Assembly: GCA_947259735.1 (NCBI GenBank)
Contig: CAMYNN010000001.1
Span: 40,409-104,408 of the forward strand
From: Thermodesulfovibrionia bacterium
GTDB taxonomy: Bacteria; Nitrospirota; Thermodesulfovibrionia; UBA6902
Length of the DNA: 64,000 nt
Direction of reading: 5' to 3'
Position numbers and translations under genes: made by a program
In this document: piece by piece, positions 7,181-64,000 of the stretch
Numbering within the stretch: position 1 is the first letter of the stretch
Layout of the letters: the number at the start of each line of letters is the position of its first letter
The notes under the pieces: model-generated
What the model saw: only the letters and a program-made list of their open reading frames with translations
Told to the model about the DNA's origin: nothing
Database searches by the model: none

Positions 7181-9616
7181 ATGTTTGAGAAGTTTACCGA
7201 AAGAGGAAGAAAAGTAATTATTTATGCCCGTGAAGAAGCTGAAAAGCGGCAAAATGACTATCTTGGCACTGAGCATTTACTCCTTGGATTGTTGAGAGAA
7301 GAAGAGAGTCTTCCCATGGTAATTCTCAAAAAAATGGGTCTCTCCGCAGAAGAACTCCGCATGGAAGTAGAAAGAAATCTGCCCACAGGTTCCAATATTC
7401 TTACGTTTGGTGATATCCCCTTTACTCCCAGAGCGAAAAAGGTCCTTGAACTGGCAGTTGAGGAAGCGCGTCTGCTTGGACACAGCTATATCGGAAGCGA
7501 ACATCTGCTCATTGGCCTGATCAGGGAAGATGCGGGAATAGCAGGAAAGATACTGAGAAGTCTCGGGGCGAATCTGCTCGGGGTCCGGCAGCTTGCCATA
7601 AACCTTTCGATGAGGAAGGCACAGTCGGGAGGAAAAGAAAAAAAGTCACACACTCCTGCACTTGATGAGTTTGGTCGGGATGTTACACAGCTTGCACGTG
7701 AAGGCAAACTCGATCCCGTTGTTGGAAGAGAGCCTGAAATAGAGAGGGTGCTCCAGATCCTGGGAAGAAGAGTAAAAAACAACCCCGTTATTATCGGAGA
7801 ATCCGGCGTCGGCAAGACAGCAATTGTGGAAGGACTTGCACAAAGGATAATTGCAGAAGAAATACCGGAAAACCTTCTTGATAAAAGGATTGTAAGTCTT
7901 GATCTTGGCGCTCTTATAGCCGGAACGAAGTACAGGGGTCAGTTTGAAGAGAGACTGAAACTGGTTATGAAGGAGATTGTTCAGACCGACAATGTAATTT
8001 TGTTTATTGATGAACTTCACACATTGGTAGGAGCAGGGGCAGCGGAAGGCTCAATTGATGCTTCCAATATGCTGAAACCAGCCCTTTCGAGGGGTGAGAT
8101 ACAATGTATCGGTGCTACGACTCCGGATGAATTCAGAAAATACATTGAAAAAGACGGAGCATTTGAGAGACGTTTTCAGTCCATATATCTGCAGCCGCCT
8201 TCATTGGACGAAAGCATCGAGATTCTTGAAGGGCTGAAAACACGGTACGAAGTACATCATAAAGTAAAGGTTAGTCCGGAAGCTCTGAAAGCATGTGTGA
8301 ACCTGTCTGACCGATATATTACAGAGAGATATCTGCCTGACAAAGCCATAGATGTTATGGATGAAACTGGTGCGCGGATTAAGCTGAAACGGTATACCAT
8401 GCCGCCTGAACTTCGTGAACTTGAAAAGGAGTTGAAACGTCTCGGAAAAGAAAAAAATCTCTACGTAAAACTTCATGACTTTGAAAAAGGGGCATCTGTC
8501 AAGAGCGAAGAGGAAAGAGTACGAAAACTGTACGACAATCTCAACAGCAAATGGCGTGAAAATCAGCATAAGGACACACCCCTTCTTCTTGATGATGATG
8601 TAGCGTATACGGTTTCAAAAATTACGGGTATTCCCCTTTCCAAACTTGAGGAAAAAGAGTCGGAAAAGCTGCTTCGCCTGGAAGAAGAGCTTCACAGACG
8701 GATAATTTCTCAGGATGAAGCGGTGAAAGCTATTGCAAAAGCGATCAGAAGATCCCGTGCCGGATTAAAGGCACGCACTAGGCCAATCGGGTCATTTTTC
8801 TTTTTGGGACCGACGGGAGTCGGGAAGACTGAACTCGCAAAGGCATTGACAGAATTTCTTTTCAATGATGATAATGCCCTCATTAAAATCGATATGTCTG
8901 AATACATGGAGCGGTTCAATGTTTCAAGACTGACAGGTGCACCTCCAGGATATGTTGGATATGAGGAAGGCGGCCAGTTGACTGAAAAAGTGCGCAGAAG
9001 GCCGTACTCTGTTGTTCTCTTTGATGAAATAGAAAAGGCCCATCCTGACGTGTTCAACCTGTTACTGCAGGTCCTTGATGAAGGTGTGATTACCGACAAT
9101 CTTGGAAGAAAAGTTGATTTTAAGAATACCGTAATTATAATGACGTCCAATGTTGGCACAAAGTATATAGAGAATGCCACTCCCCTTGGTTTTCAGCAGC
9201 CTTCTACAAAAAATACGTACGGAAAAATCAAGGACGCTGTTCTCAGTGAATTGAAAAACAAGTTTAATCCTGAATTTTTAAATCGAATTGATGAAATTGT
9301 TGTTTTTCATCAGCTTGAAAAAGAACATCTTGTCAGTATAGTAAATCTGCTGGTGGATGAGCTGAACAAGCAGCTCCTTGATCAGGACCTTGCGATTGAA
9401 CTCTCCGAGGAAGTGATCGAATGGTTAATTGACAAAAATTACCAGCCTTCATACGGTGCCAGGCCTATGAGGCGGGCTATTCAAAGATATGTCGAAGACC
9501 CCCTGTCAGAAGAAATTCTGAAGGGCAAGTTTAAAGATGTAAAAAAAGTAAATGTCGTTCTTAAAGATAACGAAGCCGCCTTTATTGAAAGTGAAATTGA
9601 AGCGCTTGTCAATTAA
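7181..9616 (+). CDS. clpC: Clp ATPase of the ClpC type, with two Clp_N repeats and two AAA+ modules.
   Basis: N-terminal Clp_N repeats ([10 protein letters not shown] / [10 protein letters not shown]). Two Walker A motifs ([16 protein letters not shown]). Length 811 aa. Confidence 0.85.
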
Positions 9617-9693
9617 GCATACCGCTGGGAACTGATGTATTCTGAAAATCCCATCCTTTCTACCAGGTGAATCTAATAATTAAACGCCCATGT

Positions 9694-9722
9694 TTGACTT
9701 TATTTGTCATGTATTATATATT
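9694..9722 (+). promoter_or_regulatory. Sigma-70 promoter: TTGACT, 17-nt spacer, TATATT, upstream of yicC.
   Basis: Hexamers and spacing read directly. Confidence 0.45.
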
Positions 9723-9782
9723 GATATGTTCTGCTATTAATTTAATACTATTAAGAGCTTACGCTAAATATTTTAGGTTTAT

Positions 9783-10637
9783 ATGATTATGCCACAGTCG
9801 ATGACAGGGTATGGAAGAGGGCAGACTGATAGCTTTAAGGTCGAAATTCGGTCTTCTAACCACAAGAATATCGATATTAGCGTCAATTTACCCTATTATC
9901 TATTTTCCCATGAACCTGAAATTAAAAAAATAGTAAAAAATAAATTCAATCGCGGCCGCATAGAAATATTCATCCCGAAGCAGGAAATAGGCACTGTGAA
10001 ACTGAAAGTCAACAAATCGCTTGCAAGGGAATACTTTAACGCACTTACTTCATTAAAAGAGGAATTATCTATTTCCGACAACGTAGGTATTGAAATGGTG
10101 GCATCACAAAGAGACATTTTTTTGCTCGATGAACAGGAAATTGATAGTAACGGACTTTATAGCGCACTCGAGGCGGCCCTGGAAGAGTTAAGCAAAAGCA
10201 GGTCTCAGGAGGGCTCAAATCTCGTGCAGGACATCAATGAAAGAGTCAGGCTCGTTCAGGATGGAATTGCTGCTATTGAACAGAAAAGAGAGGAGTTTGC
10301 GAACTCCGCAAAAGAAAAACTTATGGAGCGGCTCAGGGAATTTCTCGGCGAGATAGAGCTTGATGAAATACGTCTGATTCAGGAAGCTGCTGTCATGATT
10401 GAAAGGTCTGACATTACAGAGGAGATTGTCAGGATTCACAGTCACCTGAAGCATTTTGAAGAGGTGCTGAAATCAGATGATTCTATAGGGAAGAAAATGG
10501 ACTTTATCCTTCAGGAGCTGCGCAGAGAGATAAATACCATAGGTTCAAAAGCGCAGAATTATGGAATTTCCAATAAAGTTGTTGATGTGAAACATGAGCT
10601 GGAAAAAATAAGGGAACAGGTACAGAACCTTCAGTGA
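9783..10637 (+). CDS. yicC: YicC/YloC-family protein.
   Basis: N-terminal SMTGYGRG motif and the conserved C-terminal DxxEExxRxxxH region. Sits at the head of the yicC-remA-gmk-rpoZ-coaBC synteny. Confidence 0.85.
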   Translation: MIMPQSMTGYGRGQTDSFKVEIRSSNHKNIDISVNLPYYLFSHEPEIKKIVKNKFNRGRIEIFIPKQEIGTVKLKVNKSLAREYFNALTSLKEELSISDNVGIEMVASQRDIFLLDEQEIDSNGLYSALEAALEELSKSRSQEGSNLVQDINERVRLVQDGIAAIEQKREEFANSAKEKLMERLREFLGEIELDEIRLIQEAAVMIERSDITEEIVRIHSHLKHFEEVLKSDDSIGKKMDFILQELRREINTIGSKAQNYGISNKVVDVKHELEKIREQVQNLQ

Positions 10638-26086: not shown

Positions 26087-28336
26087 CTATGAATAGTGAA
26101 AAACCAGTTTATCTTTCTCCACGTCAATGAACACCTTTCCTCCTTTATAGAGTCTCCCAAAGAGTACTTCCTCGGACAATACATCTTTTATTTCATTCTG
26201 GATGAGCCTTCCCAGTGGCCTTGCTCCGTACTGCGGATCATAGCCGCCCTCTGCAAGCCAGTCTTTTGCTTTCACACTCAGGGTAATCAGTACTTTTTTC
26301 TGTTTAAGCTGCTGAAGAAGTTCATTGATAAATTTATCGACGACCAACCGCATTATTCCCTGGTTCAGCGGATTAAATGTGATAATGGAATCAAGGCGGT
26401 TTCTGAATTCTGCGCTGAAAAGTTTATTCACCGCATCCATTCCCTTTCGGAGGGTATCTCCACTCCTGTCCCCAAATCCGACAGAGCTTCTGCTCATCTC
26501 GTTTGTGCCCGCATTTGACGTCATGATCAGAATTACATTCCTGAAGTCGGCCTTTTTGCCGTTGTTGTCTGTCAGGGTTGCATAGTCCATCACCTGAAGA
26601 AGAATGCTGAATATGTCGGGATGGGCTTTTTCGATCTCATCCATCAGGAGAACACTGTATGGATGCTTTCTGATTGCGTCTGTCAAAAGGCCGCCCTGGT
26701 CGAATCCCACATATCCGGGAGGTGCCCCTATCAGACGGGCAACGGTATGTTTTTCCATATATTCGCTCATGTCAAAGCGTATGAACTGGATCCCAAGCAC
26801 TGCCGCCATTGTTTTGGATGCTTCCGTCTTTCCGACACCCGTCGGTCCCGTAAAAAGGAAAGAACCGATCGGCTTTTCAGGCGCCCCGAGTCCTGCGCGG
26901 GAACGTTTTATTGAAGAGGCCAGTGTGTGGATGGCTTCGTCCTGGCCGAATACCGCCTTCTTTAACTCATCTTCCAGGTTTCTCAGCTTCTCCATATCCG
27001 ATGATGATATGTTGCGCTTCGGTATCTTTGCAATTTTCGAAACAACAGATTCGATCTCAGCCTGACCAACGGTCTTTTTCCGGATATAAGAAGAAGAAAG
27101 TCTGAGCGATGCACCAGCTTCATCTATTACATCGATTGCCTTGTCAGGAAGGTATTTGTCATTAATATACTTTGAGGAGAGTTCAGACGCTGCTTTAAGG
27201 GCCGTATCCCTGTATTTCACCCCGTGGTGTTTCTCATAATAGGATTTTAATCCTTTCAGAATGCGGAATGTTTCCTGTACGTCGGGCTCTGAAATTTCTA
27301 TTTTCTGGAAACGCCTTGACAATGCCCTGTCTTTTTCAAAATAGTTTTTGTATTCTTCATAGGTGCTGGCGCCAATGCAGCGAAGTTTCCCTGTACTCAG
27401 GATGGGCTTGAGAATATTGGATGCATCCATGGAACCTCCACTTGTTGCACCGGCTCCAACGACAGTATGTATCTCATCGATAAAGAGTATTGCATCAGGT
27501 ATGGACTCAAGTTTTTTTGTGGTGGATTTGAGGCGCTCTTCAAAATCACCTCGGTATTTAGTGCCTGCTATGAGACTTCCCATATCCAGGAGAAATATCC
27601 GTGCATGTTTAAGGAGGGCAGGGACTTCATTCTTATGGATTTTCAGTGCCAGTCCTTCAACGATGGCGGTTTTCCCTACCCCCGGCTCGCCGACAAAAAT
27701 GACGTTGTTTTTTCGTCTTCTGCACAATACCTGAATTGTTCTTTTTACTTCCTTGTCCCGGCCTACAAGAGGGTCAATTCTGCCCTCGGCCGCTTTTTGA
27801 ATCAGGTCTACTGTAAACTCAGTCAGAGGCTTCTTGCTGTGGTCCTCTTTTCTACGGGGAGCTTTTTTTGTTTCAAGGGGTGCTTCCATGAGAGGCTCTG
27901 CAATGTCTTTCGATATCCCGTGAGAGATGTAGTTTAATACATCTATCCTTGACACGCCTTCGCCCAAAAGAAAGTGAACGGCGTGCGAGTCTTTCTCAAG
28001 AAAAATTGCAGAAAGGATGTCACCTGCGTCGGCTTCAGGTTTTTCAGCTGATCTGACATGGTTCACTGCAGTCTGAAATACGCGCCTGAACGCAATGGTT
28101 GGTTCGGGATAGCCCTCAGAGGTATCCGACAGTTTAGGGATTTTAGTGTCGAAAAATTCTTCCAGTTGTACATTGAGATTTTCCACATTCCCGCCGCAAT
28201 GAGCAAGAATGTCACGTCCCCACTCGTCATGAATGATGGCAAAAAGTATATGTTCAACAGTCAGGTATTCATGGCGTCTTGTTTCGGCATCCCTTACCGT
28301 TGCTTCGATCGTTATTTCCAGTTCCTTGTTAATCAT
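26087..28336 (-). CDS. clpA: Clp protease ATP-binding subunit ClpA.
   Basis: Start set at MINKELEI by comparison with E. coli ClpA. Two AAA+ modules ([16 protein letters not shown]). Overlaps the clpS stop. Confidence 0.9.
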   Translation of the reverse strand: MINKELEITIEATVRDAETRRHEYLTVEHILFAIIHDEWGRDILAHCGGNVENLNVQLEEFFDTKIPKLSDTSEGYPEPTIAFRRVFQTAVNHVRSAEKPEADAGDILSAIFLEKDSHAVHFLLGEGVSRIDVLNYISHGISKDIAEPLMEAPLETKKAPRRKEDHSKKPLTEFTVDLIQKAAEGRIDPLVGRDKEVKRTIQVLCRRRKNNVIFVGEPGVGKTAIVEGLALKIHKNEVPALLKHARIFLLDMGSLIAGTKYRGDFEERLKSTTKKLESIPDAILFIDEIHTVVGAGATSGGSMDASNILKPILSTGKLRCIGASTYEEYKNYFEKDRALSRRFQKIEISEPDVQETFRILKGLKSYYEKHHGVKYRDTALKAASELSSKYINDKYLPDKAIDVIDEAGASLRLSSSYIRKKTVGQAEIESVVSKIAKIPKRNISSSDMEKLRNLEDELKKAVFGQDEAIHTLASSIKRSRAGLGAPEKPIGSFLFTGPTGVGKTEASKTMAAVLGIQFIRFDMSEYMEKHTVARLIGAPPGYVGFDQGGLLTDAIRKHPYSVLLMDEIEKAHPDIFSILLQVMDYATLTDNNGKKADFRNVILIMTSNAGTNEMSRSSVGFGDRSGDTLRKGMDAVNKLFSAEFRNRLDSIITFNPLNQGIMRLVVDKFINELLQQLKQKKVLITLSVKAKDWLAEGGYDPQYGARPLGRLIQNEIKDVLSEEVLFGRLYKGGKVFIDVEKDKLVFHYS

Positions 28337-28653
28337 TCCTTCTCCATAGAGCACTTGAGCGGGAAACTGCTCTGTTGGGCAAGTTCATGTACCCTGTTTA
28401 TTTTTGTTTCGGCAATTCCGTGCGTGTAAACTCCTGCGAGGCCCTTCCCGCTATTATGAACATGAAGCATTATCCGGGTAGCCTCGACGGGCGGCTTGTG
28501 GAATACTTTTTCAAGCACATGAACGACAAATTCCATGGTGGTATAGTCGTCATTCATGAGAAAAACCTTGTACATTGGAGGGGACTTGGTTTCCCCCCGC
28601 TCTTTTACCAGGAGCTCTTCGTCAAATCCATATTTAATATTATCGTCGGTCAT
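28333..28653 (-). CDS. clpS: Clp adaptor ClpS.
   Basis: PMYKVFLMNDDYTTMEFVVHVL core. Confidence 0.9.
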   Translation of the reverse strand: MTDDNIKYGFDEELLVKERGETKSPPMYKVFLMNDDYTTMEFVVHVLEKVFHKPPVEATRIMLHVHNSGKGLAGVYTHGIAETKINRVHELAQQSSFPLKCSMEKE

Positions 28654-33869: not shown

Positions 33870-34250
33870 ATGATAAAGAAAATATTAATTATTGACGACT
33901 CTCCTATTGCGAGGAAGATGCTGAAAAGCTGCATGCCAAAGGATCAGGAATTTGAGTATCATGAGGCAGGAGACGGACAGGAAGGCCTTGATAAATATAA
34001 AGAAATAAACCCGGATGTGACATTTATGGATTTGACCATGCCTGTTATGACAGGGGATGAGTCAATCGGGAAAATAATAAATTATGACCGGAATGCAGTC
34101 ATAATTGTCGTAACTGCTGATATCCAGATGAAACAAATTATGAAAGTTATGGAATTGGGCGCATGTCTTGTGTTAAAGAAGCCGGTGAAAAAAGATGATA
34201 TTCTGACTGCCCTGTCAGACGTAGACGAACTCCTTAACAGAGTAATTTAA
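33870..34250 (+). CDS. Single-domain CheY-like response regulator.
   Basis: REC fold with conserved DD...D...T...K positions. Confidence 0.8.
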   Translation: MIKKILIIDDSPIARKMLKSCMPKDQEFEYHEAGDGQEGLDKYKEINPDVTFMDLTMPVMTGDESIGKIINYDRNAVIIVVTADIQMKQIMKVMELGACLVLKKPVKKDDILTALSDVDELLNRVI

Positions 34251-34251
34251 T

Positions 34252-34896
34252 ATGTACATTGATACCGAGAAAATATTTACCGTCGAGGAGACATACACTC
34301 TCCAGGAAATAATGAATATTGCCTTCGGACAAGCTGCAGCCGATCTGGCAGAAGTCATTGATACCTATGTTGTCTTAAATGTTCCCTATCTGAAAATAAT
34401 GCACATGACAGAGCTTTCTCACTATTTCAGTGAAAATATGCAGGAGTATAAAAAGATCAGCATTGTTGAACAAAAGTTCCGGGGGAAGTTCAAAGGTGAT
34501 GCACTCCTTGTTTTTTCTTCCGGAGCGGGAAAAGAATTGATGGATATGCTCCAGCAGGATGAGTCTTTCGGTTCTGGTTCTGATCCTGTGGAAATCGTGG
34601 AGAGAGAAACATTAATGGAAGTCGGGAATATCCTTATTGGGGCCTGTGTAGGAAGGCTCGCAGAACTGCTGAAAGATGTGGTGAACTATACTCCTCCCAG
34701 GGTCATTGTGGAAACGGATTACAATGAAGATGTACTTGAGAGCAGGTATAAGGGGAGTCAGACGGTAATTGTTTTGAAAACAAACTTTACTTTTGATAAG
34801 GGAAATGTGAGCGGGTTACTTTTTCTGGTTACCGATCAGGAATCCATAAGCTGGTTGAAGGACGCATTGCGTTTATTCATCGAACAGTATGAATGA
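34252..34896 (+). CDS. CheC-family CheY-P phosphatase-like protein.
   Basis: Two E-x2-N-x(20-22)-P CheC motifs (QEIMNIAFGQ..NVP and MEVGNILIG..TPP). Starts 2 nt after the cheY-like stop. Confidence 0.6.
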   Translation: MYIDTEKIFTVEETYTLQEIMNIAFGQAAADLAEVIDTYVVLNVPYLKIMHMTELSHYFSENMQEYKKISIVEQKFRGKFKGDALLVFSSGAGKELMDMLQQDESFGSGSDPVEIVERETLMEVGNILIGACVGRLAELLKDVVNYTPPRVIVETDYNEDVLESRYKGSQTVIVLKTNFTFDKGNVSGLLFLVTDQESISWLKDALRLFIEQYE

Positions 34897-35795
34897 TTTT
34901 AAATCAGGTTTTCGACGAAATAAATATCGGTCTTGTCATTCTTGACAGAGACATGAAGGTTCAGAAATGGAACCGGTGGATGGAACTTCACAGCGGTTTC
35001 GGTGCAGACAGGATCGTGGGCTCTTCCATTTTTGACTACTTCCCCGACCTGAACAATAAAAAATTCCACCGCAGCTGCAAGTCAGTATTTTCCTTCGGCA
35101 ACTGCTGTTTTTTCTCGCAGAAGCTCCACCACTATCTGTTTCCTTTTAAATCATCAGGCTACATTGATTCAGGCTTTGAATATATGCAGCAGAGTTGTTC
35201 TATGGGGCCTCTCCGTGATGAAAATAACGTCATTCAGTATTTGTTTATCCACGTTCAGGATGTAACAGAAGTTGCGCTCTATGAGCAAAAACTTGTGGAC
35301 ATGAACCTGAAAGACGGTCTTACGGGAATTTATAACAGGCGTTTCATGGAAGTGAAGCTCAGAGAAGAGTTTGACCGGTGCAGAAGGTATAACAGGGATT
35401 TCAGCATAATAATGTTTGACATCGATCATTTTAAAAATGTGAATGATGAGTACGGCCATCAATGCGGAGACTTTATTTTAAAGTCCATCAGTTCCAGGGT
35501 TTTGTCCATAATCAGAAACGTTGATTATCTTTTTCGGTATGGAGGGGAGGAGTTCTGTTGTCTCCTTCCTGAAACACAAATGAACAACGCCTTTATTGTT
35601 GCAGAGAGATTCAGGACAGCCATCATGGCAATGGAGAATGATTATGCCGGGTCAATTGTAAAGGTCACAATAAGTCTTGGAGTTGCCGGAATGGATAAAG
35701 ATATTGATTCCTCTGACAATATGGTCAAGATGGCTGATGATGCCCTCTATAAAGCGAAAAGGGAAGGGCGTAACAGGGCCCTGATCATGGGCTGA
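34893..35795 (+). CDS. PAS-GGDEF diguanylate cyclase.
   Basis: N-terminal PAS-like region, RxxD I-site and GGEEF. Overlaps the upstream gene by 4 nt. Confidence 0.8.
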   Translation: MILNQVFDEINIGLVILDRDMKVQKWNRWMELHSGFGADRIVGSSIFDYFPDLNNKKFHRSCKSVFSFGNCCFFSQKLHHYLFPFKSSGYIDSGFEYMQQSCSMGPLRDENNVIQYLFIHVQDVTEVALYEQKLVDMNLKDGLTGIYNRRFMEVKLREEFDRCRRYNRDFSIIMFDIDHFKNVNDEYGHQCGDFILKSISSRVLSIIRNVDYLFRYGGEEFCCLLPETQMNNAFIVAERFRTAIMAMENDYAGSIVKVTISLGVAGMDKDIDSSDNMVKMADDALYKAKREGRNRALIMG

Positions 35796-53071: not shown

Positions 53072-53383
53072 CTATCTGCTAACAGCCTGATAGACCTGGC
53101 CCGGTTTAAGCAGGACAAACTGCTCTGAGCCTTCTTCAGATTTTATTTGCTTGAATACTTCGCAGGACATGCATGACACTGACTTTTGGGCGAAATCACC
53201 CTGAACCATCCCGTCACAGAACGTGCCGGCTATTGACCAGCATATGCGCCCACCGTTTTTTCCGCTGTTCACGCCATTACTTGATACATTTGTTGATGCA
53301 GGACAGATTCCCAGGCTTCCGACATTCACTCCGCCCTGTTCCCTGCCGCATTTTTTGATCTCCCAGCAGTTTCGCTTATTCAT
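53072..53383 (-). CDS. Small Cys-rich protein (8 Cys) with a repeated CW motif (NCWEIKKCG...ICWSIAGTFC). Possibly a 'two-CW' sensory domain protein.
   Basis: GGGGGGAAG RBS. The CWxI...C module occurs twice. Own 177-bp upstream region. The family name is recalled from memory and was not checked. Confidence 0.5.
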   Translation of the reverse strand: MNKRNCWEIKKCGREQGGVNVGSLGICPASTNVSSNGVNSGKNGGRICWSIAGTFCDGMVQGDFAQKSVSCMSCEVFKQIKSEEGSEQFVLLKPGQVYQAVSR

Positions 53384-53560: not shown

Positions 53561-54601
53561 CTAGACTGAATTTATAATATACCCCGCAATTTCATCGATG
53601 GGAAGAATCTGGTCGGCAGCACCTGATTCCACAACTGACTTGGGCATTCCGTAAACGACACAGGTCTGCTCGCTCTCCGCGATTGTCCTTCCCCCCTTGT
53701 TCTTGATTTCCTTCATACCCTTGGAGCCGTCGTTCCCGAGGCCCGTAAGAATTACGCCGAGCACATGGCCGGAGAAACTTTCAACCGCTGAAAGCATGAG
53801 GACATCAACGGAGGGTCTGTAGATATATTCCCCTCTTTCCTCAGAAATACGTAGCACTGATTCTGTTATTTTTTTTCGTTCTATGCTCATATGACCTCTG
53901 CCGGGCGCGATATATATTGTGCCTTTTTTCACCAGGTCCCCCTCTTCGGCTTCTTTTACTTTAAGAGCGCTCAGTTGATTGAGCCTTTCAGCAAAGGGAC
54001 CGGTAAATGCAGGCGGCATATGCTGGGCAATGATAATTGGAACAGGAAAGTCTTCCGGTAAGCAGGTTAATATTTTTTGCAATGCCCTGGGACCGCCTGT
54101 TGAGGAACCTATAGCGACGACATTGATTTTCCTCTGCGCTATATAATTTGTCTTTTCGGGCATTTTCAGAGGTCCCGAAAGTTTATTGTTGAAGCCCTGG
54201 GACAGACCTTTGCTGCCGATATTCTTTATTTTTTCAATGAGTATTTCTTTAATTTTAACTATATTGATAGAAAGGTCTGATAAATTTTTGGGGATATAGT
54301 CTACGGCCCCTATGTCAAGGGCATCCAGTGTTAAATTGGCCCCTTCAGTAGTCAATGAACTGACCATCAGCACAGGCAGGGGATTCTTGTCCATTATCTG
54401 CTTCAGTGCCTCGATACCGTCCATCCGGGGCATCTCAACATCAAGTGTAACTAAATCAGGCTTCAGTGAAACAACTTTTTCCACAGCCTCAATTCCGTCA
54501 CGCGCAAAACCGACCACCTCAATTTCAGGATCGGAAACGATCATGCTTGAGAGAGTGTTCCTCATAAAAGCGGAGTCATCGACTATTAAAACCCTAATCA
54601 T
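53561..54601 (-). CDS. cheB: Chemotaxis methylesterase CheB (REC plus methylesterase domain).
   Basis: REC N-domain. Catalytic Ser/His/Asp methylesterase region. Confidence 0.9.
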   Translation of the reverse strand: MIRVLIVDDSAFMRNTLSSMIVSDPEIEVVGFARDGIEAVEKVVSLKPDLVTLDVEMPRMDGIEALKQIMDKNPLPVLMVSSLTTEGANLTLDALDIGAVDYIPKNLSDLSINIVKIKEILIEKIKNIGSKGLSQGFNNKLSGPLKMPEKTNYIAQRKINVVAIGSSTGGPRALQKILTCLPEDFPVPIIIAQHMPPAFTGPFAERLNQLSALKVKEAEEGDLVKKGTIYIAPGRGHMSIERKKITESVLRISEERGEYIYRPSVDVLMLSAVESFSGHVLGVILTGLGNDGSKGMKEIKNKGGRTIAESEQTCVVYGMPKSVVESGAADQILPIDEIAGYIINSV

Positions 54602-54639: not shown

Positions 54640-55107
54640 CTACGGTAATTGAACTGCTTCTCCCATCAGTTTATTGATGTCAATGATAATAATAAGCCTG
54701 TCATCAAGATTGGCAAGGCCTTCAATAAACTTGCTGCTCATGTCTGATGACATTGGCGGAGCAGCTTCTATCCTGCTTGCAGGAACTCTCAGCACTTCTG
54801 ACACGGAATCGACAACGAGACCATTTGTAATTCCTTCCAGTTCCATTATTATGATTCTTGATGTATCATCTGCGGGTTTGTCGTCAAAGGCAAATTTTTT
54901 TCTGAGATTTATTACTGGAATTACCTTGCCCCTCAGATTGATGACACCCTCAATGTAATCTGCCGAATTCGGAACCTTTGTGATCTCCGTTATCCTGTTT
55001 ATTTCCTGAACGTTCAGAATATCAACTGCGTACTCTTCATTGTTCAGAGTGAACGTTACAAACTGAAGGACTTCCTCCACTACTGATGTGTCGACTGATG
55101 CGTCCAT
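54640..55107 (-). CDS. cheW: CheW coupling protein.
   Basis: Single CheW domain of 155 aa. Confidence 0.85.
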   Translation of the reverse strand: MDASVDTSVVEEVLQFVTFTLNNEEYAVDILNVQEINRITEITKVPNSADYIEGVINLRGKVIPVINLRKKFAFDDKPADDTSRIIIMELEGITNGLVVDSVSEVLRVPASRIEAAPPMSSDMSSKFIEGLANLDDRLIIIIDINKLMGEAVQLP

Positions 55108-55181: not shown

Positions 55182-56423
55182 TTAAAAACCGAAATCATTG
55201 AGCATGGCCTCTACATCTGACTGGCTCACTTTTTCTTCCTCTTCAGCGTTATCTCTCTCAGTTAATTCCTCAGGTGATGATTCAGATTTCCCGGCTGCTT
55301 CGATTGCCTCTGTTTTTACGGACATCCCAAACTTGCTGACAAGGCTCAAAAGTTCAGATTCAACATTATTCACAAGGTTGATGACTTTTTTTATCGTCTG
55401 CCCGGTTATGTCCTGAAACTGTTGCGCTGTGAGTATGGAAGTCATATCATCATCGAGAGCGGACTTAAAGGATTCAAGGTAGCTGACTCTGTCATTGTCA
55501 TTCCCTATTTCTCTGACCTGCCTGGCAAATTCATCAGATTCCTCAAAATATCTCTCAACTATGCCCATTGTCCTGTTCGCGGCGTCTTCTGTCTTTGACA
55601 TGACAAACTGGAGTTTGTCAACGGCACTCGGGACGTCGTCCTTTGTTAACCGTTGAATACCGTTATCGAGCGATCCTTTGAACTCTTCGAGTGAAGTATG
55701 CAATTTTCTTGTGATATTTCCGACTTCCCTGAAAAGCCCGCCCTCTGTTTCCCTGCCGAGCTGCTCAACAATTACTTCAACCTGTTCGTATTCCTGTGCT
55801 TCGAGAGCATTGATGAAATTAATCATCAGATCACCGACGTTATGCTTTGGATTCTCCCTGTCGAGTTTACCGCGGAAGTATTCCTTTGCATTATGCAGCT
55901 CCGTTACCCTTACTTTTCCTGCGATGGAATCCACTTCCTTTGTAACTTCAACATTTACCCCATCTGACGATTCCTCTACATTAATTATGTTCTCTTCTAA
56001 AAGACTCATATCCTCAAGAGGCAGAAGATTTCTTGTATTCAGCAGAACAATCAGCTTATTGTCCAGTTTTGCTACACCTTCGACAGCGTCTGCATTGTTT
56101 TTGAAAAAACTATCGGGAGGCTCGATATCTGATTCATCAGCATTAACGACCCCGGTAATTTCATCAACGATGATTCCAAAGGTAATTTTCCCTGTTGCGA
56201 GGACGATGACGATATTTCCATTACATTCATTGCACTCTGAATCAAGGAGATTCTTAAGATTTACAATCGGGATGATATTCCCTCTCAGGTTTGATATTCC
56301 CCGAACATATCCTGGCATGTGCGGAAGGGCAGTTACGGACGGCATTCCGATTATTTCGCGAACCTTTAATATGGGAATCATATATTCGCTGGAATTTACG
56401 CTGAACCCTATATACTGATTCAA
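55182..56423 (-). CDS. Fusion of an N-terminal CheW domain to a C-terminal CheZ phosphatase. TTG start.
   Basis: N-terminal CheW-like domain. C-terminal TAQQFQDITGQTIKKV matches the E. coli CheZ catalytic AQDFQDLTGQVIKR. The final MLNDFGF matches the CheZ CheY-binding tail LLDSLGF. An AGGAGG RBS precedes the TTG. Confidence 0.75.
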   Translation of the reverse strand: MNQYIGFSVNSSEYMIPILKVREIIGMPSVTALPHMPGYVRGISNLRGNIIPIVNLKNLLDSECNECNGNIVIVLATGKITFGIIVDEITGVVNADESDIEPPDSFFKNNADAVEGVAKLDNKLIVLLNTRNLLPLEDMSLLEENIINVEESSDGVNVEVTKEVDSIAGKVRVTELHNAKEYFRGKLDRENPKHNVGDLMINFINALEAQEYEQVEVIVEQLGRETEGGLFREVGNITRKLHTSLEEFKGSLDNGIQRLTKDDVPSAVDKLQFVMSKTEDAANRTMGIVERYFEESDEFARQVREIGNDNDRVSYLESFKSALDDDMTSILTAQQFQDITGQTIKKVINLVNNVESELLSLVSKFGMSVKTEAIEAAGKSESSPEELTERDNAEEEEKVSQSDVEAMLNDFGF

Positions 56424-56515
56424 TGAGTCCTCCTGTTCGGCATAGGTAGTATCATTATTTTTTCATTCTTCAGCTGATTGTTCACTTCTCTCTGTATCAT
56501 GCCTGTCTTTCCGTA

Positions 56516-58393
56516 TCAATTTGCTGCTGCACCAAGGAGATTTCTTGACATACCTGTTACATCAAGAATGAATACCACTTTACCGTCACCTGTAATGGTC
56601 GCACCAAGAACATGTGATGATGATGTGTCAACACCGTCCAGTGTTTTTATGACAACCTCCTCCTGTCCGAGGAGTTTATCAACAGCCACACAGAACCTCT
56701 TTTCACCGAGGGCAACGACGACAAGGTATTTATGATCAGGATTTGTATCGCTGCTTTCATTCATTCCATTTCCGAGTATGCTGCCTAATTCGTAAAGTGG
56801 ACATACTTTGCCGCGGATAACAACTACGCTCTGCCCTGTGACATTATCTATTTCTTCATTTGATAATCTGAGAGTTTCTTCTATTGGGGAGAGTGGTATC
56901 GCATATTTTGCTCCTTTCACCTCTACCATGAGTGCCTGCATAATTGCGAGTGTTAAAGGAATGCAAATTTTGAATGTAGTTCCCTCATCCTTTTTTGTTG
57001 CTATTTCGACAAAACCATTCAGGAGGGATATATTTGTCTTAACAACATCCATGCCGACACCACGGCCGCTTAACTCCGTGGCTTCCTTTTTAGTGGAAAA
57101 TCCGGGCATGAAAATTATTTCGGCAGCTGCCTCGTCACTCATTTTATTGGCTTCCTCTTCAGTGAGAATGCCTTTCTTAAGAGCGGTCTTTTTCAACATT
57201 TCCACATCCAGCCCTTTGCCGTCATCAGAAATTTCAATGATGATCTGGTTGCCCTGCTGGAATATATTAATAACGACTTTTCCTTTTGGTGGCTTGCCTT
57301 TGGCAATGCGCTCCTCGGTGGACTCCAGCCCATGGTCAATGGAGTTTCTTAAAATGTGTGTCATGGGATCACCGATATGTTCAATAACAGATTTGTCAAC
57401 TTCTGTGTTTTCTCCGACGATGAGGAGTTCCACGTCTTTGTTGACCGATGCAGACATGTCCCTGATCAGCCTCGGGAATTTACCGAGGACTTTCTTTATG
57501 GGCTGCATTCTTATTTTCATTACAGCAAGTTGCATATCGGAGGTTACCCTGTCCAGAAATGAAACAGTTTCCGTCAGTGTTTCCACCTGAGGGTCCTGGG
57601 AATACTTCTGATCAAAATATCGTGATATGTTCAAAAGTCTGTTTCTTACCAGAACAACCTCCCCTGCTAGATCCATAACCTTGTCGATGCGGTCAACGTC
57701 TACCCGCAGGTTCTGGGCAGTATCCTTCCCCTTGTGACCCGGTGTCTGCTGGACCTTTCCTTTCGTCTGCTCAATGGCAGGACCGCTGTCAATACTTTTT
57801 TCATCGATCATATTTCTGATTGTTACGTCTTCCGCTAATTCAGGGACTGATTGTTCCGTTTCAGAACTTTGAGGCACTTCATTTATCTCCTGCTCTGTAT
57901 GGGACGATTTCTCTGCTTCGGGTTCTTCCAGTTTCACCTCCTGGGTACCGGTAGTCTCCTTTCCTTCCGGATTAGTATTGCTTTGAGTATCATGAGAAAT
58001 TTCGGATGCGTCATTTAATGTTGATTCCAGTTCATGAACGAGTGGTGAAACGTCCTCTTCAATACCGTCTTTTGACTTCAAATGTCCGAGGAGAAGGCGA
58101 AGCATATCAATGGATTTAAGAATAACGTCCATAAGCTTTTTTGATAGGGAGATGTCGCCGTCTCTAAGCTTCTTCATTATATTTTCAGATGTGTGCGCAA
58201 CATCCACAAGACGCTGAAAACCCAGAAACCCTGCCGCACCTTTGATCGTATGCATTGAACGAAATATATCATTCAGAAGGTCGACGTCTTCCCCTTTTTG
58301 CTCCAGTTCCACAAACAGAGGCTCGATCCTGTCAAGTGACTCTTCGGCTTCTGTAATAAACTCCGATATTATTTCATCCATTTCATCATTCAT
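56516..58393 (-). CDS. cheA: Chemotaxis histidine kinase CheA (P1/Hpt, linker, P3, P4, P5). No obvious P2 domain.
   Basis: Hpt motif HTIKGAAGFLG. HATPase G-boxes. C-terminal CheW-like domain. Confidence 0.9.
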   Translation of the reverse strand: MNDEMDEIISEFITEAEESLDRIEPLFVELEQKGEDVDLLNDIFRSMHTIKGAAGFLGFQRLVDVAHTSENIMKKLRDGDISLSKKLMDVILKSIDMLRLLLGHLKSKDGIEEDVSPLVHELESTLNDASEISHDTQSNTNPEGKETTGTQEVKLEEPEAEKSSHTEQEINEVPQSSETEQSVPELAEDVTIRNMIDEKSIDSGPAIEQTKGKVQQTPGHKGKDTAQNLRVDVDRIDKVMDLAGEVVLVRNRLLNISRYFDQKYSQDPQVETLTETVSFLDRVTSDMQLAVMKIRMQPIKKVLGKFPRLIRDMSASVNKDVELLIVGENTEVDKSVIEHIGDPMTHILRNSIDHGLESTEERIAKGKPPKGKVVINIFQQGNQIIIEISDDGKGLDVEMLKKTALKKGILTEEEANKMSDEAAAEIIFMPGFSTKKEATELSGRGVGMDVVKTNISLLNGFVEIATKKDEGTTFKICIPLTLAIMQALMVEVKGAKYAIPLSPIEETLRLSNEEIDNVTGQSVVVIRGKVCPLYELGSILGNGMNESSDTNPDHKYLVVVALGEKRFCVAVDKLLGQEEVVIKTLDGVDTSSSHVLGATITGDGKVVFILDVTGMSRNLLGAAAN

Positions 58394-58425: not shown

Positions 58426-58821
58426 TTAACTCTGTGCCTGCAGTCTTTCATATATTTTTTCCATTTTTTCTTTTAACACTTCTGCTGTAAATGGTTTTAC
58501 GATGTAGTTGTTGACGCCAGCCTGTATCGCTGCGATAACTTTTTCTTTCTCTGCTTCTGCGGTGACCATGAGAATTGGAGTGTCTTTCAATTCAATGTTG
58601 CCCCGTACCGCTTTTACAAGTTCAAGCCCATCCATGTTGGGCATGTTCCAGTCGCTGACAACGAACCCAAAGCCTCCTCCCTGAAGTTTTGAAAACGCCT
58701 GAGCACCGTCTTCTGCTTCTTCTATGCTTTCAAATCCAATTTGTCTGAGTAGATTTTTTACGATTCTTCTCATAGTTGAAAAATCGTCAACCACAAGCAC
58801 TTTTGCCTTAAGATCAATCAT
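58426..58821 (-). CDS. cheY: CheY, very close to enterobacterial CheY.
   Basis: [15 protein letters not shown]...[12 protein letters not shown]...PILMVTAEA...[11 protein letters not shown]. Confidence 0.9.
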
Positions 58822-59206
58822 GTTGTATACCTCCTTTGGCGAACATTTCTTGAATAATGTTTTTTATGTTTTGTGCAATTACATCTCCCGTAACAGGTTT
58901 TATCAGATAACCGTTCGCTCCATAACGAAGAGCCTTTTCCCGCTCTTCATCATCGCTCTCTGTGGTTACCATGAGGATCGGGAGTTCTTTCAGATCGGAG
59001 TTCGATCGAACTGCTTTAATCAGTTCAAGGCCGTCCATATAGGGCATGTTCAGATCTGCCATAATGAGATTGACCGGATCGGTGCCGAGTTTTTCAAGGG
59101 CGTCAAGACCGTTCTCAGCGAACACTACCGAATATCCTCGTGTCTTTAAATAGTGTCCAAGCAGTTTTCTTGTTGTCTGACAATCATCGACAATCATGAT
59201 TTTCAT
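58814..59206 (-). CDS. Second CheY-like single-domain response regulator.
   Basis: REC domain. Overlaps the downstream cheY by 8 nt. Confidence 0.85.
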
Positions 59207-59271: not shown

Positions 59272-60096
59272 TTACACCTTTTGATAGAAAATGACTTTAT
59301 TTATAACAGTCGGTCTGAATGCCTTCGTTACATTGTGGAGACTCTCAGAGGTGCCGATTATAAGGTAGCCCTCCGGATTTAATCGATCATAAAGGTTGGA
59401 AACTGCTGCCTGCTTCGCCTTTGCATCAAAGTAAATGAGCACGTTTCTGCAAAAAATAACATCCATTCTTTGTATTGAATTAAGATAGTTTCCGTTAAAC
59501 AGGTTCCCATTGATGAATTTGACAGATTCTCTTATGTCTGAATTCAGAGCAAAGGATTGTCCGCCTCCGGTAAAATGTTTTTTCATGTAATGCTCCGGAA
59601 TGTTTCTCACAGAGTAGGAGTTGAATACAGCATTCTTTGCAGAGTCCAAAACTCCCGTGCTCAAATCAGAAGCATGGATTTCATAATCTGACGATCCCCT
59701 TCGGTTTTTCAGAAGCATCATGGAAATTGTGTAAGGTTCTTCGCCAGTAGAACAAGCCGCTGACCATATTTTTACCGGTTTAGAGCCCTTCTTCTCTTTC
59801 AGTAATTCGGGAAACAGTTCATCGGTAAAGACGCTTAACTGGTGGGGTTCTCTGAAAAAATAGGTTTCATTTGTGGTAATCGCATCAAAGAGTCTTGTCA
59901 ATTGATTGCCGTTTGAACTGATCTTTATAAGTCTTAGATAGTCGTCAAAACTGTCAAGCTTGTTTTCCTGCAATATTCTTGTCAACCGGTTTGTAATGAG
60001 ATATTTTTTTGAATCCGAAATATAGATACCGCTATTGTCGTATATAATGGCTCTCAGCTCTTTGAATGTGGAATCAGAGAGAGACATCATCGGCAT
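59272..60096 (-). CDS. cheR: Chemotaxis methyltransferase CheR.
   Basis: CheR N-helical domain plus a SAM-dependent methyltransferase domain. Confidence 0.85.
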   Translation of the reverse strand: MPMMSLSDSTFKELRAIIYDNSGIYISDSKKYLITNRLTRILQENKLDSFDDYLRLIKISSNGNQLTRLFDAITTNETYFFREPHQLSVFTDELFPELLKEKKGSKPVKIWSAACSTGEEPYTISMMLLKNRRGSSDYEIHASDLSTGVLDSAKNAVFNSYSVRNIPEHYMKKHFTGGGQSFALNSDIRESVKFINGNLFNGNYLNSIQRMDVIFCRNVLIYFDAKAKQAAVSNLYDRLNPEGYLIIGTSESLHNVTKAFRPTVINKVIFYQKV

Positions 60097-61514
60097 GCAA
60101 CTCCGGAGTTGAAATCCTGTGCAAGCCTTTCAGCGACTTCCTTGAGGTCATCATTTAATTCGTCCATGGAAGAGATGAAGCGTTTTAAATCAATACGCAT
60201 AAGCGCATGTATGCATTCGTAGATGACATCGTCATATGGCTCGTTCTGAATCATGCTCATAAGTGGATCAAATGCTGTTTTCTCACAGATCTTTCCGAGT
60301 GCCGTTGCAGCAGTTTTTCTGACATGACTGTCGGAGTCATCAATCGCTTCGATGAAACAATCTTTTTCCTGCCCGTCGGATGTTTGAGACAGTGAAGTGA
60401 TGCTTGCCCGTCTTATGTCTCTGAAATCATGATTTGTCAGAAAGATGAGATCGGGCACGGCATCTTTGCACCCTAATTCACCGACTATCTCAATAGCTAT
60501 TGTTTTCCCTCTGTATCTAAGAGAATCGTTCCGCAGTAAAGATATGAGTGCTCCACTGCATCCGAAACTGTAAATGGCCTCTTTGATGAAACTCAGTTTC
60601 TCTTCATTTTCAGGATAAGAGAGATCGAAGGAACCTGCCGCATCCACCAGATGATACAGTGCCTGCTCATCTCTTAATGAAACCAGTCCTCTTACAGCCG
60701 ATGTTATATCGTTCCAGTCGCCTTCTTTCATCATGCCAATCAGAAAGTCTGTGATCCCCGGAATCGGAGGAACGGATCCCATCATACATAAACTCTTTAT
60801 TGTTGCAGTCTTTTCAATTCCTTTGGCTGTTCTCAAATGATCGGTAAGACTTTGAACAGCTTCAGGAGTGTTAAATGTACAGAGTGTGTCAATTGCTGCA
60901 AACCTGACTGGATCAGAAGAGCTTTTTATGAGATGTGCAATTGAATCTGTGACACTGACCTCTTTCATGTCCACAAGTGCTTCCAGTGCTGAGAAACAGA
61001 CCCACTCCTCATCGCTTAAAGCATGCACCAGCTGGGGGACTGCCTTTTTGTACTTTAATCTCCCGAGGGTTCTGGCAGCTGACGCCCTCACATTTGCGTT
61101 TTCATCACTGGTGAGCATTTCAACAATTTTTTCCGGATAAGTGCAGTACTGAATGTCATAGATGAGGTCAACGGCGAATTTTCTTATATCATGGTCCTTA
61201 TCTCTCAGAAGGACGTACAAAAGAGGCACGGCAACCCGCTCCATTTCTTTCAGAATTATGATCGCTGTATTTCTCAGAAATGCCTCCTCTCTCAATAGGG
61301 GGAGGAGCATATATACCGTTGATTCCTTTTTTAATTTCATAAGAGAACGCATAGCTGCATCCTGAACACCGAGGTTTTCATCCCTCAGTGCCTTGATCAG
61401 CGGATAAAGCACCCTGTCGTCACCGTCGGAAAGCGCCTCGGCTGCGGCACGCCTCTTTGAGGAATCAGCATCGTTCAGATTCCTGAGGTACTTGTTGAGC
61501 GTTGTCGAATGCAT
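60087..61514 (-). CDS. HEAT-repeat protein (PBS-lyase HEAT-like repeats).
   Basis: Repeated ...VRxxAxxALG... helical repeats across 475 aa. Overlaps the cheR start by 10 nt. Confidence 0.65.
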   Translation of the reverse strand: MHSTTLNKYLRNLNDADSSKRRAAAEALSDGDDRVLYPLIKALRDENLGVQDAAMRSLMKLKKESTVYMLLPLLREEAFLRNTAIIILKEMERVAVPLLYVLLRDKDHDIRKFAVDLIYDIQYCTYPEKIVEMLTSDENANVRASAARTLGRLKYKKAVPQLVHALSDEEWVCFSALEALVDMKEVSVTDSIAHLIKSSSDPVRFAAIDTLCTFNTPEAVQSLTDHLRTAKGIEKTATIKSLCMMGSVPPIPGITDFLIGMMKEGDWNDITSAVRGLVSLRDEQALYHLVDAAGSFDLSYPENEEKLSFIKEAIYSFGCSGALISLLRNDSLRYRGKTIAIEIVGELGCKDAVPDLIFLTNHDFRDIRRASITSLSQTSDGQEKDCFIEAIDDSDSHVRKTAATALGKICEKTAFDPLMSMIQNEPYDDVIYECIHALMRIDLKRFISSMDELNDDLKEVAERLAQDFNSGVACR

Positions 61515-61838
61515 TGTTATCCTTACTGTGGTACAGAATCTCCACTGATGGATGATCCAATTACCTATGCGAAGCAGACCATGTATTTATTTGAATGTAT
61601 TACCGTTCATCTATGTTTAAATTATCGGAATAAAAGGGGGATATCTTTAGCATCAAAGCATTGTTCTCAATGTTTGAATGTCAGAGAGAAAGGACGGTGG
61701 GTGAATTATATGATTAGCTTGCTTAGCGAGCTTCATGGAGGACGTTGTGAGCCCAGCAACGGTAAGGCAGCGGGGTATGTCACATGGTGCAGCAGGGAAG
61801 AATAAACAGAATACCTGCAGGGAAGCACTGCACCCTGT

Positions 61839-63143
61839 TTACCCTGTCTCATTTAAGGCCGTCATATCGCCGGGTACATCATTTTCTGTCATTACCATGT
61901 TTCTCCCCGACCGCTTGGCGAAGTAAAGAGCTGTATCAGCTCTTTCAAATACCCGCGTAGAGTCATCGCCTTCCCTGAATGTGCTGATACCGACGCTTAC
62001 CGTGAGGGGTATGTCCTTCCCTTTATAGGAAAAGATGGCTTCATCTATATATTCCCTTATGCCTTCTCCAGCCTTCTCGGCACCGGTGAGATCCGTATGG
62101 GGAAGAATAGCCACAAATTCTTCCCCCCCGTATCGTGCTACATAATCATTTGTCCGCAAGCGTTTTTTCAGCAGAGAAGCTATTTTAACAAGGGCAAGGT
62201 CCCCAACTTTGTGGCCGAAGGTGTCGTTAATGTTCTTGAAAAAATCTATGTCGCAGATCAACAGAGATGCCTGCACATTATACCTGTCGAGATTGGCCAG
62301 TGTTTCTGTTATTCTTTGATCATAGGCTTTCCGGTTAAAGAGGCCGGTGAGATTGTCACGGAATGATTCATACTGCATTTCCCGTGCTTTTCTACGCATC
62401 TCTTCAGCTTCAGCTCTAATGGCTTCTATCTGAACATTCATGTATTTCAATGAATCCTCTGTCTCTTTAAGGCGCACTATGTCCTGATCTCTCCTCTTTT
62501 TGATGCATTTGTTGATATTGCCGATCTTGCTTAACACGGCATTTTTGATGCTGTCGATGCTCCCCTCGGTGTCAAAATCCTTTTTAATGGAAGAGATGTC
62601 AGAATAGATAAATTCATCGGCCTGCCTGTCACTGCTGTATTTTTTCTGCTGGGTATATACTTCTTTTGACAACTGCCGTTCCGTTTCACCAAGATACTGC
62701 ATAGTCTGAACGATGAAGTTTTCCATTTCATTGTTGCGTACCGAAATAGAATCAATATATTTCTTTATTATCTGGATTGGTGAATCGAGCCAGTCTGTAG
62801 ACTTGCCGGCAAGTACTTTATCATCCAGCTTTCCTTTCAGATCATCGAGGTTGTCAATCATGGAGCTTGGCACCAGTTCAGAAAACCTGTCCAGTATCTT
62901 TGTTGATAATTCCCTCAGATATTGAGGGGTTATATCACTCTGTGGCGTTATTGATGTGGTGCCTGAAAGAAGTTTCTTTACAGGATCACTCCAGAACATT
63001 TTATCGGCTATGAGTTTGCTGTCAATCTGTTTTCTGTTATCATGTGAAAGCTCTTTCAGTATTTTAAGGACTTCATCGGCAAAAACAGATATTTTTTCCT
63101 CGTAATGAAGGTTCTGATCGAAAAGTTCAGCTGATTGATTCAC
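61839..63143 (-). CDS. GGDEF diguanylate cyclase with an uncharacterised ~270-aa helical N-terminal domain. GTG start.
   Basis: RxxD I-site and GGEEF. An AGGAGG RBS precedes the GTG at 63143. Confidence 0.8.
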   Translation of the reverse strand: MNQSAELFDQNLHYEEKISVFADEVLKILKELSHDNRKQIDSKLIADKMFWSDPVKKLLSGTTSITPQSDITPQYLRELSTKILDRFSELVPSSMIDNLDDLKGKLDDKVLAGKSTDWLDSPIQIIKKYIDSISVRNNEMENFIVQTMQYLGETERQLSKEVYTQQKKYSSDRQADEFIYSDISSIKKDFDTEGSIDSIKNAVLSKIGNINKCIKKRRDQDIVRLKETEDSLKYMNVQIEAIRAEAEEMRRKAREMQYESFRDNLTGLFNRKAYDQRITETLANLDRYNVQASLLICDIDFFKNINDTFGHKVGDLALVKIASLLKKRLRTNDYVARYGGEEFVAILPHTDLTGAEKAGEGIREYIDEAIFSYKGKDIPLTVSVGISTFREGDDSTRVFERADTALYFAKRSGRNMVMTENDVPGDMTALNETG

Positions 63144-63204: not shown

Positions 63205-63431
63205 ATCACACTTCAAATATAGGGGATAGCCCCATAATATTGTATCGGACTTTATTTTTAAAACTTGAATGCTATAAGAATATTATTTTTGAGATATTAG
63301 AAAACTACCCATATTTAAATGATAAAATAAGATATCAAAGACGGGATGGAGAGTGAAATCCTCGCAGGCACTCGTTAAACGATTGATGAGGAATTCAAGT
63401 GGATATCACAAATTGAAGGAGGACGATACTC

Positions 63432-64000
63432 TCAGACAGTGTTTGCGCTGTCTTTATGTAAAACATCATTCTCGCTTTTAACCTGGTTTCTGCCCGAACT
63501 CTTGGCAAGGTACAGAGCTTTGTCGGCTCTTTCAAAAGCGGTGCTGCTGTCATCTCCTTTTTGGAAAGAACTGACGCCGACACTTATTGTCAGAGGAATT
63601 TTCTCGTCCCTATAAGAAAACACCGATTTGTCAATGTATGCGCGGATCCCGTCTCCTGCCTTTACTGCACCGTCCAGATCGGTATCATAAAGAATAATGG
63701 CAAATTCCTCACCGCCGAACCGTGATATGAAGTCGATTGTCCGAAGACGTTCTGTAAGCAGGGCCCCCAGCTTTTTCAGGGCAAGGTCTCCTATCTTATG
63801 GCCGTAGGTGTCGTTTATTTTTTTGAAATAATCAATGTCGCAGATTAACAGAGAGGCCACCACATCATCATCTTCCAGGGTAGTAAGAAGTTCCTTCATT
63901 CTCTGGTCATAGGCCCGCCGGTTATAAAGACCCGTAAGTTTATCATGGACAGCGTCATATTCAATCTCATCAGACCTCTTTTGAATTTCATCAGCTTCAC
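63432..64000 (-). CDS. Paralogous GGDEF diguanylate cyclase. The N-terminus runs off the window.
   Basis: GGEEF, RxxD and a DKLTGLYNRRAYDQR domain start. The frame stays open to position 64000. Confidence 0.8.
   Translation of the reverse strand, partial: EADEIQKRSDEIEYDAVHDKLTGLYNRRAYDQRMKELLTTLEDDDVVASLLICDIDYFKKINDTYGHKIGDLALKKLGALLTERLRTIDFISRFGGEEFAIILYDTDLDGAVKAGDGIRAYIDKSVFSYRDEKIPLTISVGVSSFQKGDDSSTAFERADKALYLAKSSGRNQVKSENDVLHKDSANTV

Follow-up and report, generated by a model that had tools for sequence, protein, structure and literature searches.

Where a chemotaxis system places its phosphatase with respect to its kinase has long been debated as a matter of design; the placement bears on how even the level of phosphorylated CheY (CheY-P) is throughout the cell, as well as on signal gain and the speed of the response. 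In Escherichia coli, the contact between the short form of CheA (CheA-short) and the phosphatase CheZ is weak and indirect, and other bacteria use different partners. E. coli CheZ reaches the receptor clusters through CheA and its localisation influences signalling (PMC7750401; PMC1447658; PMC2014792). Two motifs, AXXFQ and DXXXQ, have been described for CheZ proteins (PMC7750401). In Leptospirae, CheA is found fused to CheC or CheX, and these proteins have been proposed to act as both kinase and phosphatase (PMC10542144). For the combination of CheW with CheZ, Vass and colleagues devoted one sentence of their analysis of CheW architectures to CheZ, which they named among the partners in rare architectures (bioRxiv 10.1101/2022.05.07.491035); the supplements of that paper contain no CheZ counts. 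Our literature search, which had some subscription papers outside its reach, returned neither the term "CheW-CheZ" or variants of it nor any work on the function, structure or localisation of a protein of this kind; the first-pass annotation of the DNA analysed here had likewise known of no characterised example.

The gene under study lies on the reverse strand of a 64,000-nucleotide stretch of Thermodesulfovibrionia DNA (the window) and encodes a protein that is 100% identical to P0001 of the metagenome-assembled genome (MAG) GCA_947258725.1, in which the window lies on contig CAMYJE010000002.1. Its features, and those of its surroundings, are collected in Table 1. When the gene was scanned for start codons, a strong Shine-Dalgarno (SD) sequence was found at the TTG start only, and the single other SD-like match was one of 4 nt before a GTG at amino acid 399. 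By analogy with CheA-short, an internal start could yield free CheZ; no SD-preceded start was detected between the CheW and CheZ parts.

Table 1. Positions in the window of the cheW-cheZ gene and its parts, the che operon and other genes mentioned in the text.
Feature	Position	Strand	Basis or remark
cheW-cheZ fusion gene	55182..56423	-	413 codons plus stop (55184-55182); TTG start (56423-56421)
Shine-Dalgarno AGGAGG	56429..56434	-	5 nt ahead of the cheW-cheZ TTG start; read from the sequence
CheW domain, aa 1-144	55992..56423	-	Pfam PF01584, PDB CheW matches, AF2 model
Conserved linker, aa 145-185	55869..55991	-	predicted three-stranded beta meander (AF2, low confidence)
Two short helices before the CheZ hairpin, aa 186-226	55746..55868	-	AF2 helices 192-208 and 212-226
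CheZ helical hairpin, aa 227-365	55329..55745	-	aligned to E. coli CheZ 14-167; AF2 helices 229-305 and 310-364
Putative active-site motif AQQFQDITGQ, aa 333-342	55398..55427	-	D338/Q342 aligned with E. coli D143/Q147
Variable tether, predicted disordered, aa 366-398	55230..55328	-	pLDDT <50
C-terminal CheY-binding peptide (by alignment) VSQSDVEAMLNDFGF, aa 399-413	55185..55229	-	aligned to E. coli SQDQVDDLLDSLGF
GGDEF-domain gene	63431-64000	-	runs off the window
GGDEF-domain gene	61838-63142	-	
HEAT-repeat protein gene	60087..61514	-	475 aa; conserved first operon gene
cheR	59272..60096	-	
Second cheY-like gene	58814..59206	-	38% identical to E. coli CheY
Canonical cheY	58426..58821	-	63% identical to E. 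coli CheY; two genes upstream of the fusion
cheA	56516..58393	-	Hpt, dimerisation, HATPase and P5/CheW-like domains; directly upstream of the fusion
Stand-alone cheW	54640..55107	-	directly downstream of the fusion
cheB	53561..54601	-	
Two-CW domain protein gene	53072-53383	-	small, cysteine-rich; NCBIfam NF045718, E=4.4e-30
Receiver-only protein gene	33870-34250	+	first gene of a three-gene set (33870-35795)
CheC-family phosphatase gene	34252-34896	+	CheC E=1.6e-11, CheX E=2.9e-07
PAS-GGDEF protein gene	34893-35795	+	third gene of the set
Clp-type AAA+ chaperone gene	26087-28354	-	adjoins clpS
Clp-type AAA+ chaperone gene	7181-9616	+	

A Pfam scan of the fusion returned CheW (PF01584) over amino acids 3-134 (E=1.5e-34, 119 bits, threshold 23.5) and CheZ (PF04344; E=1.1e-34, 120.5 bits, threshold 30.7), scores that far exceed chance. 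Searches of the PDB sequences matched E. coli CheW (2ho9, E=4.6e-21) and, with the C-terminal 265 amino acids alone, E. coli CheZ (1kmi, E=5.4e-11), the FQDITGQ of the fusion pairing with the FQDLTGQ of E. coli CheZ. An hhalign comparison of a 30-member family profile with E. coli CheZ, whose sequence agrees with the PDB alignment to 1kmi, aligned fusion residues 227-413 to CheZ 14-214 with a probability of 98.15% (E=6.5e-14). This alignment takes in the C-terminal peptide (SQSDVEAMLNDFGF against SQDQVDDLLDSLGF), and identity over the aligned part is 26%. Judged by these matches, the N-terminal part is a CheW-family domain and the C-terminal part a member of the CheZ family. Because the fusion scores far under the cut-offs of the enterobacterial NCBIfam equivalogs (72.8 bits against 257 for CheZ, NF008368; 81 bits against 260 for CheW), both halves are divergent, and by this measure the C-terminal part counts as a divergent CheZ rather than a strict orthologue.

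The first-pass annotation had read the N-terminal part as CheW-like, the string TAQQFQDITGQTIKKV as a CheZ catalytic signature with its Asp and Gln, and the terminal MLNDFGF as a likeness of the CheY-binding peptide of CheZ. Both strings are present in the translation, and the three readings hold: the Pfam and PDB matches identify the CheW domain, D338 and Q342 align with the two catalytic residues of E. coli CheZ at invariant positions, and the C-terminal peptide is aligned with that of E. coli CheZ by hhalign. It had also raised the prospect that the QDITGQ match was fortuitous; the motif sits inside an end-to-end alignment with CheZ. Its further suggestion, that the fusion would put the phosphatase directly into the array, is plausible.

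Conservation within the family was analysed part by part. Mean pairwise identity is 67% in the CheW domain and 71% in the CheZ hairpin, and 25% in the tether; therefore, both halves are under comparable selection. The C-terminal peptide is conserved at 81%, and in the alignments this succession of a variable tether and a conserved peptide copies the pattern of E. coli CheZ. Between the two domains, identity is 53% in the beta linker and 46% in the pre-CheZ helices, the latter falling outside the stretch that aligns with E. coli CheZ 14-214. The linker (amino acids 145-185) matched no Pfam family at E<=10 in the Pfam scan and is still recognisable in Thermodesulfovibrio at 43% overall identity; given its conservation, it seems to be more than a flexible spacer. 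In the CheW domain, residues E23, G42, R47, and G48 are the equivalents of E38, G57, R62, and G63 of E. coli CheW, with G42 and R47 invariant in the family and E23 and G48 conserved in at least 90%.

Among 30 homologues, the invariant residues include Q334, Q335, F336, Q337, D338, G341, and Q342 around the putative active site and Q401, S402, D403, V404, L408, and F413 of the C-terminal peptide. When 106 homologues were compared, D338, Q342, and the surrounding QQFQD.TGQTIKKV were invariant or nearly so, as is the pattern QSDVE.LLNDFGF of the peptide in homologues. This conservation argues against an inactive CheZ-like scaffold, in which the C-terminal half would bind or sequester CheY-P after loss of catalysis. 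Nothing specific speaks for such a scaffold apart from the score under the enterobacterial CheZ equivalog cut-off, and we consider it very improbable.

The AlphaFold2 (AF2) model of the full-length fusion has a mean pLDDT of 59.8 and is usable for the CheW part only. This part superposes on the CheW chains 6s1k_C and 8c5v_E, which come from core signalling units, with TM scores of 0.81-0.85 and rmsd values of 2.3-3.0, and a Foldseek search of the PDB with the full-length model returned CheW and CheA-P5 chains only. In a model of the CheZ part by itself from 106 aligned sequences, at a pLDDT of 69.0, the expected helices 229-305 and 310-364 are predicted with a turn between them. The C-terminal peptide is predicted to form a helix at 401-410. 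Foldseek found no match to the CheZ-part model at E<0.5, 1KMI included; because it discriminates long helical hairpins poorly, the CheZ assignment leans on the sequence profiles.

We then considered whether adjacent cheW and cheZ genes could have been joined artificially by a frameshift or mis-assembly, a concern that the first-pass annotation had raised and that the metagenome-assembled source of the window makes pertinent. A protein search found 597 relatives at E<=1e-5, of which the best 120 all carry both Pfam domains, are 386-420 amino acids long and are 54-68% identical to the fusion. A second protein search, with a query from a Thermodesulfovibrio MAG, gave the fused architecture in all of its best 120 matches, and more than 200 protein clusters have the CheW-CheZ architecture. 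In a scan of one genome per species, 369 genomes held a relative; the best 80 of these 369 gave full-length fusion matches with a single exception, and nearly all of these 80 are labelled Nitrospirota or Thermodesulfovibrionia. Cultured carriers include T. hydrogeniphilus, T. aggregans, T. thiophilus, and Thermodesulfovibrio sp. 3907-1M, and a RefSeq "MULTISPECIES" entry for the genus Thermodesulfovibrio has the fusion too. CP144373.1, CP070788.1 and OY760142.1 are complete genomes with the fusion. The protein sequence around the junction is conserved, and the two parts stay in frame in homologues down to 43% overall identity. Since the in-frame junction is conserved and the fusion recurs in hundreds of independent assemblies, complete isolate genomes among them, the artefact is ruled out, its probability being practically nil. 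As far as the homologues tell, the gene encodes a genuine two-domain protein made of CheW, a conserved linker of about 80 amino acids and a complete CheZ.

The exception among the 80 loci (L075, approximately 8757-10046) is the sole one with the CheW and CheZ parts on separate open reading frames. Its match ends at residue 371, at the end of the contig, and the split probably stems from a local fault of sequencing or assembly rather than from a naturally divided gene. More divergent proteins with CheW and CheZ are 30-38% identical to the fusion, one cluster being labelled Thermodesulfobacteriota.

Going by these genomes, the CheW-CheZ fusion is the norm in the class Thermodesulfovibrionia and is more widespread than "rare" suggests, and the rarity implied by the first-pass annotation was overstated. 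The architecture is already visible in databases (RefSeq, JGI and UniRef annotate it), where the proteins go under "protein phosphatase CheZ", "CheW-like domain-containing protein" or the two COG names together. Both domains are known, as is the chemistry that they perform. A rough neighbour-joining tree of CheZ domains, computed with no support values, places 17/17 CheW-fused sequences in one 30-leaf clade beside a group with an Hpt-like N-terminal region. One clade for all of them would agree with a fusion that arose once, long ago.

The most likely function of the fusion, which we judge probable from its domains and conserved residues, is to act as a CheY-P phosphatase that is either attached to the chemoreceptor array or incorporated in it. 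The CheW domain would dock on CheA-P5 and the receptor tips, occupying or binding at the CheW positions of the lattice, and the CheZ part would dimerise as in 1KMI to give a four-helix bundle below the baseplate. The tethered C-terminal peptide would capture CheY-P released by CheA, and D338 and Q342 would catalyse its dephosphorylation. The covalent link would co-localise kinase and phosphatase, the role played in E. coli by the CheA-short/CheZ interaction, and in operons that have no separate cheW the fusion may double as the main coupling protein. The canonical CheY encoded two genes upstream is the likely substrate of the CheZ part.

The che cluster of the window is co-oriented and tightly spaced, with flagellar genes on both sides. 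Mapping of 80 loci with phmmer gave the order HEAT-cheR-cheY-cheY-cheA-cheWZ-(cheW)-cheB essentially everywhere, the fusion gene always coming after cheA. Predicted promoters and terminators of the operon were as numerous as in the shuffled background, and none lay in the intergenic gaps. The HEAT-repeat gene, which shares 10 nt with the start of cheR in the window, heads the che operon in nearly every locus whose sequence extends far enough upstream. A two-CW domain protein, for which no Pfam family was found, is encoded after cheB in the window, as it is in many of the loci nearest to it by relationship. Two GGDEF-domain genes separate the che operon from fliL/fliM.

The loci differ in the gene that follows the fusion. 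A separate cheW stands directly 3' of it in the 22 closest loci, and cheB takes this place in the more distant group. Among distant loci with full 10-kb flanks (n=39), 17/39 have a cheW somewhere downstream and 22/39 have no other cheW. The complete genome of Thermodesulfovibrio sp. 3907-1M (CP144373.1) has the order flhA-flhF-flhG-fliA-HEAT-cheR-cheY-cheY-cheA-cheWZ-cheB-HDOD-flgFG, with no second cheW in 21 kb around the fusion. When stand-alone CheW proteins were searched with a Thermodesulfovibrionales CheW query, none of the best 120 matches was named Thermodesulfovibrio, going by name only. The loci that have no other cheW favour a structural role in the lattice, in which the fusion would be the principal CheW, its CheZ dimer would cross-link two CheW positions and its activity could couple to the state of the receptors. 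Such a role would also fit a CheW domain that is conserved as much as the CheZ part and a linker that is conserved and not merely flexible. The CheA dimer carries two P5 domains, to which the two CheW domains of a fusion dimer can be likened. However, the absence of cheW covers the 10-kb flanks of the loci and 21 kb in CP144373.1, so that a cheW may lie elsewhere in these genomes, and the window and its 22 closest relatives have a separate cheW right after the fusion. Because of this separate CheW directly downstream, the fusion of the window need not be a lattice component. We regard the structural role as possible but doubtful; it extends the best explanation, an array-bound phosphatase, rather than excluding it. 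In its fullest form, the CheZ dimer would link two CheW domains so that the phosphatase is a stoichiometric element of the lattice and the main coupling protein in operons with no cheW, its activity being modulated by the conformation of receptor and kinase. We think this unlikely; were it true, the array would control CheY phosphorylation and dephosphorylation alike.

The separate canonical CheW in the window operon points in another direction as well. Its identity to the CheW domain of the fusion is 30%, and the partners of the two may therefore differ. The CheW domain could then serve for docking on the kinase only, binding CheA-P5 or free CheA off the lattice and bringing CheZ with it as CheA-short does, with no coupling to receptors. 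However, the fusion keeps the hallmark CheW residues and many operons have no other cheW, and we find docking on the kinase alone distinctly unlikely. A CheY-P phosphatase held at the array remains our preferred reading of the protein.

Other N-terminal partners of CheZ were seen in the course of the analysis. About 29 of the 150 best CheZ representatives, P0149, P0171, and P0181 among them, are proteins of 400-530 amino acids with a non-CheW N-terminal region of approximately 240 amino acids. This region gives weak Hpt matches below threshold (PF01627, E=0.0012 and 0.0039) and contains a CheA-P1-like motif, ALKTFHTTSSMLGL. In E. coli, CheZ attaches to what remains of P1 in CheA-short, and these Hpt-like-CheZ proteins could, by analogy, be covalent versions of the CheA-short/CheZ complex. 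Two further proteins (692 and 538 amino acids) combine a CheA-like HATPase_c domain with CheZ, and one (367 amino acids) combines FKBP_C with CheZ (P0243, P0255, and P0148).

Elsewhere in the window, a three-gene set encodes a receiver-only protein, a CheC-family phosphatase and a PAS-GGDEF protein. Phosphatases of the CheZ type and of the CheC type are thus both present in this organism, their genes approximately 20 kb apart, and the CheC-type gene is linked to c-di-GMP genes. The window also holds two genes for Clp-type AAA+ chaperones, and the remainder of its first 20 kb consists of housekeeping genes.

A whole bacterial class in which CheZ is permanently joined to a CheW domain amounts to a natural experiment on phosphatase placement, and the fusion is present in cultured Thermodesulfovibrio strains. 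Such an experiment could reveal if an array may contain a phosphatase as a permanent part, and how that would affect the architecture of the array. Its practical value is modest.

Compared with the CheZ of E. coli (1KMI), the fusion shares, by alignment, the N-terminal helix, the DxxxQ hairpin, the flexible tether and the C-terminal CheY-binding peptide, and it would be expected to lead to the same result, in which phosphatase and kinase are found together. The means of localisation differ: E. coli CheZ is placed by a non-covalent contact with CheA-short, whereas the fusion would use its covalent CheW domain. The gaps in the hhalign alignment make the hairpin of the fusion approximately 21 residues shorter near the tip, a region reported to be necessary for the localisation of E. 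coli CheZ (PMC7750401), and the fusion has in addition the conserved linker of about 80 amino acids. With CheV it shares a CheW-type domain joined to a module through which phosphoryl groups are removed from the pathway or taken up, and both are encoded in che/flagellar clusters. However, the partner domain in CheV is a receiver and that in the fusion is CheZ, with no Response_reg match in the Pfam scan; hence, the protein is not a CheV. The Leptospirae fusions likewise carry a CheY-P phosphatase covalently on a core array component, but there it is CheC or CheX on CheA, and here CheZ on CheW. Finally, the CheZ proteins of Helicobacter pylori, which acts with ChePep, and of Azorhizobium are, like the CheZ part of the fusion, divergent orthologues that keep DxxxQ. 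Theirs are polar and have no CheW domain; their localisation needs neither CheA nor the arrays and depends on other partners or on the N-terminal helix of the protein itself.
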